DNA from: a virus
Reading direction: 5' to 3' (one strand)
UHGV virus genome: UHGV-0122684
Length of the DNA: 17,890 nucleotides
Below are positions 1-8,084 of this stretch, in pieces. How positions within the stretch are numbered: position 1 is the first letter of the stretch; the number at the start of each line of letters is the position of its first letter. Made by a program: the position numbers and the translations under genes. Under the pieces are notes generated by a model that saw only the letters and a program-made list of their open reading frames with translations, was not told the DNA's origin and did no database searches.

Positions 1-196
1 CAGCCTCATCACGGGCAATTATGCGCCCTTGTTCAATCATGCGGGCAGCGGTCTGTGCGTTCGCTGTTTGCGATGATTCCACGCTGTCACGTTCCGCCCA
101 CTTTTTTTCCCACCCGCGACTGCTCCATACACTGCCGGCGATGAATGCGACGGCCACCAGCAGCAACCCAACAACAATCTGGTGTTTCGGGTTCAT
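1..196 (-). CDS. Rz-like i-spanin, N-terminal part (gene runs off the window start)
   Basis: ATG at 194-196 (minus) overlaps the endolysin stop codon (196-198) by 1 nt. My translation of the reverse complement reads [65 protein letters not shown]: short N-terminus, one hydrophobic helix, then a charged/Gln-Ala-rich segment. This and the position after holin-endolysin match the Rz architecture. Not in the ORF track because it is truncated. Confidence 0.6.
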
Positions 197-768
197 CAAA
201 ATACCCCCGAAACTGATACTGGAATGCCTGGGTTAAGCGGCTCATATCCATCACTCAGATTTTGTGATTTCTCAGCCCACAGACAAACTTCACGCTCAAT
301 CTCACGCCGGGTGATTAACCCCTTCCACTGTTTGCCACCGGCATATGTCCAGCGCCGTAATTGTTCGCAAGCCCCTTTTGTGTCGCCCAGGTTGATTTTG
401 CGTAGCAGCGTGGAGGTTTTGAAGTTGCCAGCACCGACGTTGTACGCGAATGAGTAAAGTGCACCCCGCATTGTTGCCGGGATCGGAACCTTGATGTAGG
501 GGTCAATCTGACGTGCGATGGTATTCAGATCTTTTGTGAGCAGAATGGCACACTCTGTCTCGGTGTACGTCTTCCCGATTTTGACGTCGCTGCCAGTGTG
601 CCCGTAGCATACCGTCCACACCCCAACAACATCCCGATAAGGCTGATAGCGCACTCCTTCAAGGCCATCATTACCCGTTGGACCAATAATCAACGCCGCT
701 GCGATAGCAATAGCGCCAGCGGGTATAGCTGCAATAACGCTATTCTTCAGCTTTGGTGACATTGCCAT
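196..768 (-). CDS. SAR endolysin (phage lysozyme, T4-lysozyme-like fold, P21 R-like)
   Basis: 190-aa ORF. N-terminal Gly/Ala-rich weakly hydrophobic segment ([20 protein letters not shown]) typical of a signal-anchor-release domain, followed by GNDGLEG...D...T catalytic region and the conserved YNVGAGNF / [15 protein letters not shown] / TRREIERE motifs. Start overlaps the holin 3' end. C-terminus is about 25 aa longer than I recall for P21 R. Confidence 0.9.
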
Positions 769-1018
769 TAAGCCGGTCCTCCCTTTCCTTTTTCCTGTAG
801 TACCAGTTCACTGCACAGGTGATAACAGTGCATGAGATACCGACAATAATTGCCCAGTCGCTCAGGCTTAACCCTGCAATTCTGTCGGCCAACATCCAGG
901 ACACCTCTTTTGCTGTTTTAGCTGTTTCGGCATATGCCTTCGCTGATACACCGCAGCCGGTCAGCGTGGTTCCTGTTCCATATGAAAGTCTGCTGTAAAT
1001 GGTGCTCATTCTGGTCAT
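740..1018 (-). CDS. holin, pinholin-like, with dual-start motif
   Basis: 92-aa ORF directly upstream of and overlapping the SAR endolysin. Has a weak Gly/Thr-rich hydrophobic segment, a strong TM helix ([20 protein letters not shown]) and a charged C-tail (RKKEREDR). Strong SD (GGAGGTGA) precedes the ATG at 1016-1018. N-terminus MTRM gives two in-frame starts separated by a basic residue, as in holin/antiholin pairs. Confidence 0.7.
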
Positions 1019-1163: not shown

Positions 1164-2216
1164 TTATGATTTTTTCAGTTTTTCCACCTCTTCGGTGGTC
1201 TGTATAAACCTGTCTTCCTCCAGTTCTACGCCGATCGCCCGACGGCCAAGTTCTATTGCTGCTTTCACAGTTGAACCAGAGCCCATAAAGAAATCGGCAA
1301 CGATATCCCCCGGCCTGCTGCTGGCGCTAATGATCTGCTTCAGCATGTCGGCAGGTTTTTCGCATGGATGTTTGCCCGGATAAAACTGAACAGGCTTATG
1401 CGTCCATACGTCGGTATACGGAACAAGAGCGGAAACAGAGAAACAGCGCCGGAGGGTTTTGTATTCCTCCAGCAATTCTGAATACTTGCGGTTTAATGAC
1501 TGGTAGGTAGCCACCAGCTGATGGTGAGGATGTTCAAGCTTCTGCTGAATGTGCTTATCGATAGCGATCCGCGTGAACAGTTCCTGCAACTTTCTATAGT
1601 CCACTTCATTTGGTAGTTGCCATTGGCTTGCACCAAACCAGTGTGACGCCATGTTTTTCTTGCCGGTTGCCTCAGCTATTTCTTTCGAGCTGACACCCAG
1701 TGATTCACGGGCATTACGGAAGTAATCAATCAGCGGCGTCATAATGTGCTGCTTTAGCTCTGTGCTTTTCCTTTCGTAAACATCCTCTTTACCTGTGTAC
1801 GGCCCAAGATAGTGCTCAGCAAACAAAATCCGTTCCGTAGATGGAAAGTACGCACGCAGGCTTTCTTTGTTACATCCATTCCAGCGGCCCGATGGTTTTG
1901 CCCAAATTATGTGATTCAAAACGTTGAACCGGGCACGCATCATAATCTCTATATCTGAGGCCAGTCGGTGACCACAAAACAGGTAAATGCTACCAGCAGG
2001 TTTAAGAACGCGAGCATACTCAGCCAGACAGCTATCAAGCCAGCGTAAGTAGTCCTCGTCCCCCTTCCATTGATTGTCCCAGCCGTTGGGCTTCACTTTG
2101 AAGTACGGCGGATCCGTAACTATCAGATCAATAGAGTTATCCGGGAGGGTGGCGACGTAATGCAGGCTATCAGCGTTGATTAATTCAACACTGTTTATTT
2201 TTACAGTATTTTTCAT
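1164..2216 (-). CDS. DNA methyltransferase, beta-class amino-MTase (probably N6-adenine)
   Basis: 350-aa ORF. Motif IV (DLIVTDPPYF) near the N-terminus and AdoMet-binding motif I (DIVADFFMGSGST) near the C-terminus, the order typical of beta-class N6A/N4C methyltransferases. No adjacent restriction endonuclease, so it looks like an orphan MTase. Confidence 0.85.
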   Translation of the reverse strand: MKNTVKINSVELINADSLHYVATLPDNSIDLIVTDPPYFKVKPNGWDNQWKGDEDYLRWLDSCLAEYARVLKPAGSIYLFCGHRLASDIEIMMRARFNVLNHIIWAKPSGRWNGCNKESLRAYFPSTERILFAEHYLGPYTGKEDVYERKSTELKQHIMTPLIDYFRNARESLGVSSKEIAEATGKKNMASHWFGASQWQLPNEVDYRKLQELFTRIAIDKHIQQKLEHPHHQLVATYQSLNRKYSELLEEYKTLRRCFSVSALVPYTDVWTHKPVQFYPGKHPCEKPADMLKQIISASSRPGDIVADFFMGSGSTVKAAIELGRRAIGVELEEDRFIQTTEEVEKLKKS

Positions 2217-2366
2217 AGATCAGTAAGCGTAACTCTGATAGGCTCACGTTGCTTTTGCGCTAAAGCAGTGGGCCTTGGTTAGCTTGTGACCTGAAAGCAT
2301 GAGCTGATGGCTGGCCGGGTGCGCTAACACCCACCAGCCGCCCATTTCCACAGCAGAATGCCCCCA

Positions 2367-2558
2367 TTACTGGAGGCGTTTATAACATCCAAACTGGTAA
2401 TCAGATAAACCCGCCATCACCAGCTGTGTGAGTATGAGCTGGCAACGTTCTCGGCTAAGGTGGGTATTCTGTGCAATCTCCCCAGCCGTTGCTGGTTTAT
2501 CGCTTAACTCATTGAAAACAGCCTTCGCGGTTTCTGTCATATCTTCCTGATTTAGCAT
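2367..2558 (-). CDS. small winged-helix-like DNA-binding protein (hypothetical)
   Basis: 63-aa ORF, first ORF after the late-promoter terminator. AGGTAAAAG SD-like sequence upstream of the ATG at 2556-2558. The helix-turn-helix-like segment TAGEIAQNTHLSRERCQLILTQL resembles the wHTH of the 84-aa ORF at 14047-14301. Confidence 0.5.
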   Translation of the reverse strand: MLNQEDMTETAKAVFNELSDKPATAGEIAQNTHLSRERCQLILTQLVMAGLSDYQFGCYKRLQ

Positions 2559-2680
2559 GTCTTTTACCTAAAATTATTTGCGTGACATACAGATAACTCT
2601 GGTTGGCGACACCAGCAAGAGAAGAATTCCATTCTGCGACCACCAGCGCCTTTATGCGCCGCGCATGGCTAAATTGCCAT

Positions 2681-2706
2681 AAAAAAACCCGCTCATTGGC
2701 GGGTTT
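2681..2706 (-). terminator. rho-independent terminator (tR'-like) ending a short late leader RNA
   Basis: On the minus strand: AAACCCGCC-AATGA-GCGGGTTT hairpin followed by a T run (the A run at 2681-2687 on the plus strand). Sits about 35-50 nt downstream of the predicted late promoter and upstream of the first late ORF, as lambda tR' does. Confidence 0.6.
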
Positions 2707-2724: not shown

Positions 2725-2770
2725 ATCAAATATGCTTCAAATATGGCTTATTTTGTTGCATTTTGCAAGC
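2725..2770 (-). promoter_or_regulatory. candidate late promoter pR' with a duplicated -10-like (pause/qut-like) element
   Basis: Minus strand reads TTGCAA (plus 2763-2768) ...CATATTTGAAGCATATTTGATATG. That is a -35-like hexamer, then two tandem copies of CATATTTGA about 12 nt apart. The first is a plausible -10; the second is a -10-like element in the initial transcribed region, as needed for sigma70-dependent promoter-proximal pausing at Q-dependent promoters. Hexamer assignment is tentative. Confidence 0.4.
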
Positions 2771-2798: not shown

Positions 2799-3488
2799 TC
2801 ACATTTCTGCCACTTTGAGGGCTTCTTCTTCCTCATAGTATTCAAGAGCCATTGCCAACGCAGATTCATCAAGCTGGGTAAAAGCGGCCTTTAACCCAGC
2901 CCAGTGCCCTGAATAGACACGCAACCATGTCGAACGGTCAACGCTAACCATGCGGGCCAACGCTGCACCAGCATAGTCTTTATAGGTTTCATTATTTCTG
3001 GTTGCGGCAATTTCCTGCCCTGCCAGCCATACCAGGCCAATCAGTTTCTTTACTACGCGCTCCTGAAGGGAATTATCACCCAGGCATTTCTGATAAGTTT
3101 TCCAGACGTATTCACACATCATCACCTGGTGCTTATAGCTAAGGTCAAAACCGTAGCAGTACCGCAACCAGGCCTGCTGGTATCCACTAAGCGCGGACAC
3201 TGCCCTACGCCACGGCGCGGACTCAAATTCCGCATCTTTTATCGGCGGCATTGGCCTGCGGCGGCTGCGTGTTTCCAGCACATACAGTGGCGCGGAAAGC
3301 AAGTTAACAAAGCGTGGCCCCTTCTCTCCTTCGAGTTCGACGAGATGAATTCCACGGCGCGGGGTGGCATTTTTGTCTGCTGGTGGGTGTTCACTGAAAG
3401 CCTCAAGCTGCCCTTTTGTTCCCCCAGAGAGGTCAGGTAGCGCGCGGCGCAATTCTATTCTTACAAAATTCAGGTCTTGTTGATTCAT
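2799..3488 (-). CDS. putative late-gene antiterminator (Q-like; by position, not sequence-verified)
   Basis: About 229 aa from the ATG at 3486-3488 (GGAG 11 nt upstream); the ORF track extends it to a GTG at 3509. Lies immediately after a DUF968 gene and immediately before a promoter, short leader and terminator followed by lysis genes, which is the canonical Q - pR' - tR' arrangement. Family assignment rests on synteny and size only. Confidence 0.5.
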   Translation of the reverse strand: MNQQDLNFVRIELRRALPDLSGGTKGQLEAFSEHPPADKNATPRRGIHLVELEGEKGPRFVNLLSAPLYVLETRSRRRPMPPIKDAEFESAPWRRAVSALSGYQQAWLRYCYGFDLSYKHQVMMCEYVWKTYQKCLGDNSLQERVVKKLIGLVWLAGQEIAATRNNETYKDYAGAALARMVSVDRSTWLRVYSGHWAGLKAAFTQLDESALAMALEYYEEEEALKVAEM

Positions 3489-3509
3489 GCTTCTTTGCGC
3501 TCCATACAC

Positions 3510-4565
3510 TTAAGCTTTCGCAATTACGCCGATCGCCAGCGCCCGATCCATAAAACGCAGTAGCAGCTCAAGCTGCGTACCATGCTTCTGCTCGAATGCC
3601 GGTACATCGGCGTGCAGCTCATCGTGGCACTCTCTGCACAGAGGGATCACGAAGAGGTCATGGGCTTTTGTTGCTGTACCACCCATACCGTGCCCTACGA
3701 TATGGTGCGGATCATCTGCTGGCCGTCGGCAACACTCACACGGTTGTGTTTTAACCCAGCGGGTGTACGTATCATTTACCCAGCGGCGACGTTTTGGCCT
3801 GAGCATGAAAGACTCCGGAGACTCCGGATCGACGGTTAACGTCAGTATTGGCTTTTGGGTTTCCACATCCAGGCTGTCTGACCGCCGAGCTGGTAACGTT
3901 TCAATCGGCCTGACTTTTTCCTGCATAATGCTGGTGGCCGGCGGCATAGGTACGATGTCACTTTCCCGGTAAACAGATAATAATGGTTCGTCTGGCAACC
4001 GTAGTGCCCGTTGCGCCATTCCTTCAGTGACGGCATCAGCGACACCTGACTGAACAGCCCACCAGCAAAGCTCGGCTAAAGAGAGGGAGCGCTCTTTGTT
4101 GTAGCCAAGCCCAACCAGTACGGTATCAATAACCCACTCGGCAACATTGCTCAGGGCAAGCGCCTGCAGCCTCTCCGTAGTCTGCCCACGCAATTTGTTA
4201 TCGCAATGCCAGCACACCACCAGCGCGCCAGGCGGATGCCATAGTGTTGTGAGCTCGGCATGATGGTAGTCAGAAACAGGGTACTGGCACTTTTTAACGC
4301 GCTGACGAAGCCAGTACTCAAGCCCGGACATACCACCAGCAGCAGTAATGACCCGTTCATCGGTAAAGAAAGTGTGAAGGCTGGCATCATCCAGTAGCGG
4401 TTGCTGTGCATCGGGGATCCGACCAGACGGAAGCCGGGCCATGTTTTCTGGCTCCCGTTCAACCAGCACGCGACCTGATGCAAACAGGGGCATTAACTCC
4501 CGTCCTGGCTTGAACAGCACCACGCCAAGGCGTGGCACCATTTCAGGGGTAAGTAAGGCTCTCAA
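3510..4565 (-). CDS. DUF968-like phage protein with C-terminal HNH/zinc-finger-like Cys/His motif
   Basis: 351-aa ORF abutting the Q-like gene. C-terminal region CECCRRP...HHIVGHGMGG...CRECHDELH resembles an HNH-type metal-binding nuclease motif. Size and position upstream of Q match what I recall for YdfU-like DUF968 proteins in the E. coli Qin prophage (from memory). Confidence 0.7.
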   Translation of the reverse strand: MRALLTPEMVPRLGVVLFKPGRELMPLFASGRVLVEREPENMARLPSGRIPDAQQPLLDDASLHTFFTDERVITAAGGMSGLEYWLRQRVKKCQYPVSDYHHAELTTLWHPPGALVVCWHCDNKLRGQTTERLQALALSNVAEWVIDTVLVGLGYNKERSLSLAELCWWAVQSGVADAVTEGMAQRALRLPDEPLLSVYRESDIVPMPPATSIMQEKVRPIETLPARRSDSLDVETQKPILTLTVDPESPESFMLRPKRRRWVNDTYTRWVKTQPCECCRRPADDPHHIVGHGMGGTATKAHDLFVIPLCRECHDELHADVPAFEQKHGTQLELLLRFMDRALAIGVIAKA

Positions 4566-6369: not shown

Positions 6370-6768
6370 TCAACCCACAGCTGGACATATAACCACCTCT
6401 TTTTTATATGCCGTTATGGTTATCTCAACTTTTCCCTTCGGTACTATCGGTCCCCATTCCACCAGCATGCGCTTAATCTGGCTGTCGTCTTCCCAGACAC
6501 CCGCATGCGTCAGCGCGTCAAACAGGGCTTTGTTGTAATTATCGATATCCCGGCGGCGAGCATCCGGCGGGTACAGCGTGATTTCTACCGCTGCCAGTTC
6601 AGTCGATGGCTTCGGGAGACGTCGTAATTGCTCAATGATCGCCACGCAGGCAGCGCTCTGGTATTTACGGCCATCAGCGCTAATGAGGTGACGACCGGCC
6701 AGCGGCCCCTTGTTAGGGGCGCGCCAGTAAGTGTTCACGCTCGGAGGAAAAGGCAGGACCAGTTTCAC
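6370..6768 (-). CDS. rusA: RusA-family Holliday junction resolvase
   Basis: 132-aa ORF beginning MKLVLPFPPSVNTYW, the characteristic RusA N-terminal motif, with acidic residues further on (DIDNYNKALFDAL). Start overlaps the stop of the upstream 439-aa gene. Confidence 0.85.
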   Translation of the reverse strand: MKLVLPFPPSVNTYWRAPNKGPLAGRHLISADGRKYQSAACVAIIEQLRRLPKPSTELAAVEITLYPPDARRRDIDNYNKALFDALTHAGVWEDDSQIKRMLVEWGPIVPKGKVEITITAYKKEVVICPAVG

Positions 6769-8084
6769 GCGGCCTCTCCCCGCATATTGCGAACAAGTTC
6801 AGAAGCAGCAGTAATGATTTCGCTGGTGGCAGTCCGCTCCAGCCAGAGTTGATTGATATTGGCTTTCAGCTTGTGTTGCAGTGACTCATCCAGCATGTCA
6901 GCACCATCCACCTGGTCGAATACAATTCTAACCTCCAGCGGCCAGATACGGGACTCGGGAAGCGGATCCGATACTGGTTTAGCTTTCTCACGAATGTGCA
7001 TGCGGATCTGGCGAATATTGGACCAACTGGAAACATCCAGGCTTCCCATGGCTGCAATGAAGTCAGTGCTGTTCATGCCATATTCACCGGATGCTTCAAG
7101 GGCAACAGTGCGAATACGTTCCGACATATCCAGGCGCACAGCAGCGTCATCGAATTCAATCGACAACAGCCACTCATCCACACCGAACAAAATACTCTCA
7201 CGAATAAGCAGCTTCGCTTTGTCGATCGTTAAAGGTGATACCTGAGTGAATTCCGGTGCTTCGACAGAATCCGCCGCCCAGGTATGCCCAAACTTCGATT
7301 CACTGAATGTGTATTCTTCTTTATCGCCAAACGCAGCTCTAACGCATGCCCACGCCTCGACACCGCTGATAGCAAAAATATCTTTCTGGGTGAGTGGCAA
7401 CTCTGCTTCTGGCTTATCAGCTGCAGGAGGTCTGGCAGTTACAGGTTGAGACTTGCTGGCAGCAAATTGTGGCAAAGCCATAAACGCCCGCCCTTTTGCC
7501 TCCAGTTCTGTGCGGTTGATATAGCTGAACCGCTCGCCACGCCATGACTTATCGAATACAGCTATGGCACCGGCAAAAAACGCGCTGGTGGGCTTCTGTT
7601 TTTCGTCAGCCGGTATAAACCACACAGGCAGATCGAACCCAATGCGCCCGCGAATGAATACAATGTGATCGGCATCTTCCGGCCACCACGTTTCACTCGG
7701 CGCGGCTTTTATCAGGAATACATAGCGACCGCCCTTCTCGCGCTGGGCTGCTGCGTACTTCATGATGTGCGTCATACCAGTGATCGCCTGTTTCTCGTGA
7801 TACTGCGAACGGCTATACTGTGGGTTGCCATAACCAGCGCCACCCAGTTCTGTAAGACGTTCAGACCAGTCCTGCGTCAGCGCGTTATCTTCGGCGGTGT
7901 ACCATGCCGGGCATTTCGCGTTGTCGTCGTCAGCAAACAAGTCCAGAACTAATGGACCAAATAGTGCGTTGATCCCCCAAAACAGCAGATCCGGTGTTCG
8001 CCACTGATCGCCAACTTCTTTCAATTCGTGAGCTGGTTTACTGCGCAGTTCTGCCAGCGCCTGGCAATATTTATTTGGCATCAT
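6765..8084 (-). CDS. protein with N-terminal phage Dam-like N6-adenine methyltransferase fold and long C-terminal extension
   Basis: 439-aa ORF translationally coupled to the O-like gene (ATGA overlap at 8081-8084). N-terminal about 180 aa read WRTPDLLFWGINALFGPLVLDLFADDDNAKCPAWYTAEDNALTQDW ... GYGNPQYS ... VFLIKAAPSETWWPED ... IVFIRGRIGF, matching the small phage Dam-family pattern as I recall it, but with NPQY where NPPY/DPPY is expected. No Walker A motif seen, so it does not look like a helicase or helicase loader. Confidence 0.65.
   Translation of the reverse strand: MMPNKYCQALAELRSKPAHELKEVGDQWRTPDLLFWGINALFGPLVLDLFADDDNAKCPAWYTAEDNALTQDWSERLTELGGAGYGNPQYSRSQYHEKQAITGMTHIMKYAAAQREKGGRYVFLIKAAPSETWWPEDADHIVFIRGRIGFDLPVWFIPADEKQKPTSAFFAGAIAVFDKSWRGERFSYINRTELEAKGRAFMALPQFAASKSQPVTARPPAADKPEAELPLTQKDIFAISGVEAWACVRAAFGDKEEYTFSESKFGHTWAADSVEAPEFTQVSPLTIDKAKLLIRESILFGVDEWLLSIEFDDAAVRLDMSERIRTVALEASGEYGMNSTDFIAAMGSLDVSSWSNIRQIRMHIREKAKPVSDPLPESRIWPLEVRIVFDQVDGADMLDESLQHKLKANINQLWLERTATSEIITAASELVRNMRGEAA

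Follow-up and report, generated by a model that had tools for sequence, protein, structure and literature searches.

A conserved RNA leader ahead of an M.EcoGII-family methyltransferase gene in the late region of a lambdoid prophage

M.EcoGII is a beta-class DNA methyltransferase of 349 amino acids (aa), encoded by a prophage of E. coli O104:H4 (C227-11), that methylates adenine in any sequence context; in vitro it acts on double-stranded DNA, single-stranded DNA and RNA-DNA hybrids and more weakly on RNA, and its methylation blocks restriction broadly (PMC5778455). It is silent in the lysogen and harmful if constitutively expressed, and its authors proposed that it is turned on at induction and that the phage thereby overcomes restriction (PMC5778455). 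Its activity on RNA is ~100-fold below that on DNA (PMC11551740, Table S3), and the reconstructed ancestors Anc291 and SUPREM are reported to be active and largely non-sequence-specific (PMC11551740). In O111 lysogens, methylome data gave no methylation that could be assigned to the M.EcoGI/GII homologues, and these homologues are listed as non-specific (PMC6602927). Hia5/M.HaeV-type enzymes, likened here by description only, are also phage-borne, with near-context-free N6-methyladenine (m6A) formation and a presumed anti-restriction role (PMC5778455 and general knowledge). Here we describe a minus-strand module (positions 1164-2558) of the virus genome UHGV-0122684, whose 17,890 nucleotides (nt) we call the window, in which a methyltransferase gene of the M.EcoGII family is preceded by a structured RNA leader and by a gene for a 63-aa winged-helix protein.

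The methyltransferase gene is not novel: it is a copy of a characterised family that is well known and commercially used, the module was already visible in deposited phage genomes, and the gene pair itself adds little. The new part is the conserved structured leader, which has no Rfam match; neither the leader, nor the winged-helix partner, nor the late-operon position is described in the publication on M.EcoGII and M.EcoGI (PMC5778455). We consider it likely that the locus serves a lambdoid prophage as a late-operon cassette, which keeps an M.EcoGII-type enzyme off in the lysogen and turns it on after induction, so that the progeny are shielded.

The leader and the hairpin before it

The leader is made of helices P1 (2339..2309), P2 (2306..2280), P4 (2275..2272 with 2243..2240) and P3 (2267..2250), all on the minus strand, and of the invariant single-stranded blocks UGGGC, GCCCA and GAGCCUA. 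The conservation of this spacer exceeds that of coding DNA. An nhmmer profile of the spacer found the leader in 213 of 238 loci, including some whose methyltransferases are only 55-68% identical in protein, and it is kept whatever stands upstream, be it the winged-helix gene, an S49 peptidase gene, a 220-aa open reading frame (ORF) or the Q gene itself; where the winged-helix gene is absent, the leader is conserved equally. Three hairpins stay paired while their sequences change almost completely (78-sequence MAFFT alignment). For example, the two sides of P1 read GGCTGGTGGGTG / CACCCGGCCAGCC in the window, GCGGTTAGCGTG / CGCACTAACCGC in locus L175 and GCTGCAGCATG / CATGCTGCAGC in locus L258. 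From the wide MAFFT alignment, RNAalifold retrieved the structure only in part, and a hand-set structure with a covariance model was used. This model, which includes P1-P4, detects the leader in 81 of 95 loci, and in the alignment fitted to it standard pairs fill 85.8% of the pair cells, versus 22-39% when the partners are slid. Both sides change in 21 of 31 pairs (P1 10/12, P2 7/9, P3 3/6, P4 1/4), and the covariation score is 0.325, versus at most 0.08 in the slid controls. The same compensations can be seen in the structure-blind MAFFT alignment, and the window leader folds better than all 200 of its shuffles (z = -3.3).

Independently, 185,579 species genomes were scanned with a DNA pattern made from the invariant blocks only, without the methyltransferase. 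There were 50 matches, 42 of which were confirmed by the covariance model, nearly all on Enterobacterales contigs. Four confirmed leaders carry other labels (a Geobacteraceae metagenome-assembled genome (MAG), a Bacillus MAG, Vagococcus and a Proteobacteria MAG) and probably stand on mis-binned or contaminant contigs; the eight remaining matches fall in unrelated phyla, within a rough estimate of chance pattern matches. A gene of the M.EcoGII family directly follows 41 of the 42 confirmed leaders, the exception being an Erwinia psidii locus that has lost the gene.

The cis-regulatory leaders and riboswitches of Rfam 15 share with this element a multi-hairpin 5' layout, invariant junction nucleotides and a position immediately upstream of a start codon. 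However, no Rfam 15 family reached its gathering threshold in the window, and even at E up to 5 nothing matched within 2217-2353; the weak leader and small RNA (sRNA) matches obtained at that level all fall on the tR' hairpin described below. A literature search for the leader sequence found nothing. Identity with a known prophage sRNA was rejected, since the anti-sRNAs AsxR and AgvB map elsewhere, 3' of morons and convergent (PMC4104026), as do the Pas sRNAs. A small upstream ORF of 33 codons (ATGGGCGGC...) was discarded as well, since its synonymous positions do not vary and L002, L003 and L026 have 1-nt indels that disrupt its reading frame. Nor is the spacer a tRNA remnant, ARAGORN having found no tRNA gene in the window, the 150-nt spacer included.

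Near the AUG, leaders of the window type have no Shine-Dalgarno sequence, and the distant leader types carry AAGG ~15 nt upstream of it. Three mutually exclusive pairings are possible among the invariant pentamers UGGGC, GCCCA and GCCUA, and the P2 loop is complementary to the five bases that precede the AUG. The alternatives P0 (UGGGC:GCCCA), P0' (UGGGC:GCCUA) and P2 loop:pre-AUG are each pairable in more than 90% of the sequences. We hypothesise a translational switch, with which this layout is compatible; it would suit one that senses a ligand (such as S-adenosylmethionine or S-adenosylhomocysteine), the enzyme itself or the winged-helix protein.

Directly 5' of the leader stands a GC-rich, terminator-like hairpin, hairpin T (GCCUCC-AGUAAU-GGGGGC, 2377..2360), which spans the stop codon of the winged-helix gene and is followed by AUUCUGCUG. 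Its sequence varies between phages and its pairing is kept, with both-side changes in 3-8 of 44 sequences per pair. In many loci without the winged-helix gene, canonical terminators with tracts of six to seven U take its place (seen in L250, L301, L175 and L252), which argues that the conserved unit consists of terminator, leader and methyltransferase. Hairpin T and the leader are the best candidates for the actual control elements. With its three covariation-supported hairpins and its pentamers near the ribosome-binding region, the leader could represent a previously undescribed cis-regulatory RNA class dedicated to genes of the M.EcoGII type, a proposal that we make tentatively and at somewhat less than even chance.

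A subgroup of loci has the winged-helix gene only 76-102 nt before the methyltransferase (L179, L180, L185, L186, L188, L192, L195, L207, L216, L217, L227, L288 and L314). No leader was found there by nhmmer (13 distant loci) or by the covariance model (nine loci searched), and a different, shorter leader may be in use.

The methyltransferase and its late-operon position

The 350-aa methyltransferase is a member of the M.EcoGII family by sequence. Its match to PF01555 (N6_N4_Mtase; 153 bits vs a cut-off of 26.7) covers residues 29-337. DPPY lies at residues 35-38 and FxGxG (FMGSG) around residue 310, the motif order of the beta class, and alignment A4 shows no variation in these columns. It is 75% identical to M.EcoGII over its full length (348 aligned residues, 2 gap positions), 83% to Anc291 and 70% to SUPREM, identities that place it among the non-specific enzymes; the M.EcoGII and ancestor references were taken from the machine-read supplement text of PMC11551740, which contains a few errors. 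In the helix-turn-helix-like central domain the alignment is ungapped. Like M.EcoGII and M.EcoGI, the protein combines DPPY, a central recognition domain and FxGxG within ~350 aa and is prophage-borne and orphan; unlike them, it is assigned from sequence alone, and a quarter of its residues differ. The window copy would thus be expected to methylate adenines non-specifically. A protein search returned 2,929 clusters at E <= 1e-10, with generic annotation throughout, and a full-database profile search gave ~300 cluster representatives at E <= 1e-30, many of those among the matches listed being near full query length. Among solved structures, matches were confined to the catalytic core of distant beta-class methyltransferases that have no central domain; no M.EcoGII structure was found.

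The integrase, CI-like repressor, Q and lysis genes in the window identify the stretch as a lambdoid prophage. Its other genes are a CII-like gene, a replication gene, a Dam-type methyltransferase gene, RusA and antirepressor genes. On the minus strand the order around the module is DUF968, Q, a 240-nt gap, the 63-aa ORF, a 150-nt gap, the methyltransferase, a 145-nt gap, holin and lysozyme:

4565..3510, minus: DUF968 gene, the 5'-most gene in the order reported around the module
2799..3509, minus: Q antiterminator gene, 236 aa (PF06323 Phage_antiter_Q, E 3e-37)
2740..2768, minus: candidate late promoter pR', read from the sequence and invariant across Q alleles that are 61-100% identical
2677..2706, minus: tR'-like intrinsic terminator (terminator scan; pairing kept between phages)
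2367..2558, minus: 63-aa winged-helix gene, phrog_331 (ORF, AlphaFold model, PHROGs match)
2351..2377, minus: hairpin T, terminator-like, with conserved pairing; contains the winged-helix stop codon
2217..2353, minus: structured RNA leader of the methyltransferase gene, ~137 nt (alignments, covariance model R1, pair counts, folding z-score)
1164..2216, minus: M.EcoGII-family beta-class adenine DNA methyltransferase, 350 aa (PF01555, E 1e-44)
740..1018, minus: holin, first gene of the lysis cassette (PF16080 and PF04971)
196..768, minus: lysozyme (endolysin; PF00959, E 4e-46)

The layout is that of a Q-dependent late operon, with the Q gene, a candidate promoter, a near terminator and same-strand lysis genes downstream. 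Right after the Q stop codon, the putative pR' has a -35 element TTGCAA (2768..2763), a 17-nt spacer and a -10 element CATATT (2745..2740). The promoter assignment leans on conservation rather than on a strong consensus match. About 35 nt beyond it, the terminator scan called tR' (AAACCCGC-CAATGA-GCGGGTTT and a T tract), whose stem ACCCGC/GCGGGT lies at 2706..2685 and is followed by T7; the stem still pairs despite base changes in L003 and L028. Promoter and terminator form a block of 120 nt that is nearly invariant downstream of the divergent Q alleles, the picture that would be expected of a pR'/qut/tR' unit co-evolving with its Q. Homology between phages ends right after the tR' T tract, where different cargo starts. 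A second CATATT stands 11 nt downstream of the candidate -10 (2729-2734, minus), in the initially transcribed region, and may be a pause-inducing element; this duplication is reminiscent of the sigma70-dependent pause element that serves Q loading at the late promoters of lambdoid phages.

Further downstream, ~60 nt ahead of the winged-helix start (CTTGCTGGTGTCGCCAACCAGAGTTATCTGTATGTCAC...) are conserved along with the winged-helix gene, a block that is also present in L003, L016 and L028. The conserved stretch includes a small hairpin (2615..2599), and further upstream in the same region (2559-2683, minus) stands a perfect palindrome (ATGCGC-G-GCGCAT, ~2665..2653, minus). A promoter, an operator or another RNA element may be located here.

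An earlier reading of the same DNA (the original prediction) had seen here a beta-class amino-methyltransferase without a restriction partner, preceded by a winged-helix gene and inserted between a late promoter and the lysis cassette, at a spot where lambdoid phages carry morons. As a description of the locus this stands: both ORFs are present on the minus strand, Q, the promoter and terminator block, holin and lysozyme surround the module, variable cargo follows tR' in the close loci, and stx2e lies downstream of the phiP27 copy. The prediction overlooked the known M.EcoGII family, the commonness of the module, and the structured leader and terminator hairpin held by the 150-nt spacer.

The module is indeed widespread, some part of the 2.6-kb region matching 1,055 of 5,426 complete E. 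coli genomes. Among annotated records, the two genes are found in phiP27, SfV (orf47 and orf48), Stx2c phages, Citrobacter phiNP and the prophage of E. coli Nissle 1917. All these copies share the winged-helix gene, the ~150-nt spacer and the methyltransferase downstream of Q, and their neighbours differ. In phiP27, L23 ('TrmB family') and L24 have a T5orf172-type gene upstream and are followed by tRNAs, stx2e and the lysis genes; the Nissle copy, 97% identical in DNA, has a 1.5-kb insert (an S49 peptidase gene and a hypothetical gene) between Q and the winged-helix gene. In 83 close loci (L001-L083) the methyltransferase follows four unrelated Q families (PF06323, PF06530, PF03589 and DUF1133), and the cargo between Q and the module differs from locus to locus and frequently runs on the opposite strand. 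The DNA that comes just after tR' is a hot spot for such cargo, whose genes are probably defence or moron genes. Cargo includes KAP NTPase, T5orf172/GIY-YIG-type, GmrSD_N (Type IV restriction-like), S49/SDH peptidase and MT-A70 methyltransferase genes and several unknowns.

The 63-aa winged-helix protein

The original prediction had also taken the 63-aa protein for a winged helix, and the AlphaFold model bears this out: three helices and a two-strand wing form a minimal winged helix (predicted local distance difference test score, pLDDT, 92). The protein matches phrog_331, a family of unknown function, at E 2e-32; Pfam gave only sub-threshold matches, to DprA_WH and TrmB. The family counts 303 clusters, all from Enterobacterales, which are automatically named 'TrmB family' or 'DprA-like winged helix'. 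Foldseek against the PDB returned generic winged-helix matches only, none with E below 1e-3, and no function can therefore be read from the fold. These matches include O-methyltransferase dimerisation domains, IclR, MarR and the mRNA-binding domain of SelB; the mRNA-hairpin-binding winged helix of SelB ranks 7 of the 50 structural matches listed. No DpnI entry, with its m6A-binding winged helix (PMC11037411), is among these 50, all of which are generic.

The association of the two genes was examined in the 80 best winged-helix loci of IMG/VR, 77 of which have room downstream. The methyltransferase is present there in 76 (two copies being truncated), and the two genes lie 147-154 nt apart in 72 of the 76. 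Two winged-helix alleles, 86% and 57% identical to that of the window, precede nearly identical methyltransferases, indicating that the pair stays together through recombination. In the opposite direction, no winged-helix gene precedes the methyltransferase in 16 of 79 evaluable close loci and in 86 of 155 more distant ones. The 63-aa protein thus accompanies the methyltransferase as a dispensable accessory, and is predicted to bind nucleic acid. It may tune expression or act on methylated nucleic acid. In locus L325 (Erwinia psidii, 3655-4013), the winged-helix gene and leader are kept and the methyltransferase is lost; L085 and L152 keep the winged-helix gene beside a truncated methyltransferase.

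Controller (C) proteins of Type II restriction-modification systems are helix-turn-helix proteins of the XRE type that time endonuclease expression through C-boxes. They resemble the 63-aa protein in being small, of a nucleic-acid-binding type and encoded just upstream of a methyltransferase. However, the Pfam scan of the 63-aa protein gave no XRE/HTH_3 match and its model shows a winged helix; moreover, an endonuclease that it might control is absent, and many methyltransferase loci do without it. The controller identity that had been suggested for this protein is consequently not supported.

How the cassette would work, and its alternatives

The following sequence of events may be suggested. 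In the lysogen, transcripts from pR' would halt at tR', and stray transcripts from the upstream cargo would halt at hairpin T; the structured, Shine-Dalgarno-poor leader probably also limits translation of the methyltransferase. Two terminators and the leader would thus jointly keep a toxic enzyme off, an account that fits the reported silence of M.EcoGII in lysogens and its toxicity. Upon induction, Q-modified RNA polymerase would pass both terminators and transcribe first the winged-helix gene, next the leader with its methyltransferase, and finally the lysis genes. The enzyme could then methylate the adenines of replicating phage DNA in most sequence contexts before packaging, and in the next host the progeny would be protected against the many restriction enzymes of Types I, II and III that are blocked by m6A. 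The winged-helix protein would modulate the system in some way. An anti-restriction use, already put forward in the original prediction, is probable.

Several points weigh against this account. The match of pR' to consensus is 8 of 12 positions, below the threshold of the promoter scan, which makes the promoter a matter of inference. The U tract of hairpin T is weak in the window, and the terminator scan did not call this hairpin. The pair counts of the leader come from a model-fitted alignment, which favours structure, and covariation cannot choose among P0, P0' and the pairing of the P2 loop with the pre-AUG bases, because the segments whose pairing would mask the start region are invariant. 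Moreover, 25% of the residues differ from M.EcoGII, including the central target-recognition region, with many substitutions between residues 135 and 260, so that some sequence preference is possible; relatives are also labelled 'site-specific DNA-methyltransferase' in RefSeq, a generic name. These last points would favour a sequence-specific orphan methyltransferase with a defined short motif, which we nevertheless consider distinctly unlikely given that M.EcoGII, Anc291 and SUPREM, among which the enzyme sits, are all reported to be non-specific, that the central domain aligns gaplessly, and that the O111 homologues are listed as non-specific (PMC6602927). The search for a target motif, advised earlier, is probably moot for an enzyme 75% identical to the any-context M.EcoGII. 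It is also unlikely, if slightly less so, that the main job is other than anti-restriction, namely the methylation of RNA, phage DNA or host DNA to reprogram late expression, replication or packaging, with the leader as the enzyme's own substrate or autoregulatory site. M.EcoGII does methylate single-stranded DNA, RNA and RNA-DNA hybrids in vitro (PMC5778455), the leader is strongly conserved with invariant single-stranded blocks that contain A, and the phage already has a second, Dam-type methyltransferase; against this stand the ~100-fold lower activity of M.EcoGII on RNA (PMC11551740, Table S3) and the broad blockage of restriction demonstrated in vitro (PMC5778455), and nothing tested in this analysis supports a physical link between leader and enzyme.

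Whether the 137-nt spacer acts as DNA, either as a promoter or an operator, of the winged-helix protein for instance, or as a recombination joint, rather than as folded RNA, must also be considered. Its long invariant blocks (AATGGGCGGC, GGCCCA and GAGCCTATCA) could be protein-binding sites, and mosaic joints occur just upstream of it. However, three hairpins keep their pairing through both-side changes although their sequences are almost wholly changed (10 of 12 pairs in P1), the conservation extends equally to loci without a winged-helix gene, and orientation and distance to the start codon are fixed, all of which makes a DNA element very unlikely. The probability appears close to negligible that the module descends from a Type II restriction-modification system that has lost its endonuclease and whose C protein became the winged-helix protein. 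A small gene of DNA-binding type directly upstream does give a superficial resemblance to C-M-R operons, and phiP27 has its T5orf172/GIY-YIG-type gene upstream. Yet no restriction endonuclease gene was found in the window, and no cognate endonuclease, or conserved remnant of one, adjoins the methyltransferase in the 83 close loci or in the annotated records of phiP27, phiNP and Nissle, a finding that had been named in advance as decisive against an orphan had it come out the other way. Overall, ~240 related loci show no endonuclease beside the methyltransferase. The neighbours in the examined loci are Q genes, variable cargo, tRNAs with stx, or lysis genes; the upstream cargo frequently runs in the other direction, and unrelated defence-like genes (KAP NTPase, GmrSD_N, S49 peptidase) are part of it. 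Furthermore, the small protein has a winged-helix fold without an XRE/HTH_3 match, and a methyltransferase without sequence specificity cannot serve a site-specific nuclease as its cognate partner. A restriction-modification system, intact or decayed, was rejected on these grounds, and the methyltransferase is a prophage-borne orphan.

A late-operon cassette for an M.EcoGII-type enzyme would have several consequences. A Q-dependent position behind two terminators would explain a puzzle, namely that M.EcoGI and M.EcoGII are silent in lysogens and toxic if expressed. On this view, the DNA of induced lambdoid and Stx phages should be heavily m6A-modified, which, if true, bears on the host range of such phages, on their escape from restriction and on their nanopore-based analysis. 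The leader is a concrete candidate for a new riboregulator that could explain how phages dose a dangerous enzyme, and it may help users who express M.EcoGII-type enzymes as tools.

Two further observations concern the rest of the window. The second DNA methyltransferase of the prophage (439 aa, 6765-8084, minus), with an N-terminal PF05869 Dam domain, lies in the early (nin-like) region and adjoins RusA, so that one prophage encodes enzymes of both the Dam type and the M.EcoGII type. Between the methyltransferase stop and the holin start, the 145-nt gap (1019-1163, minus) contains a 9-bp inverted repeat (GATCACCAC...GTGGTGATC).

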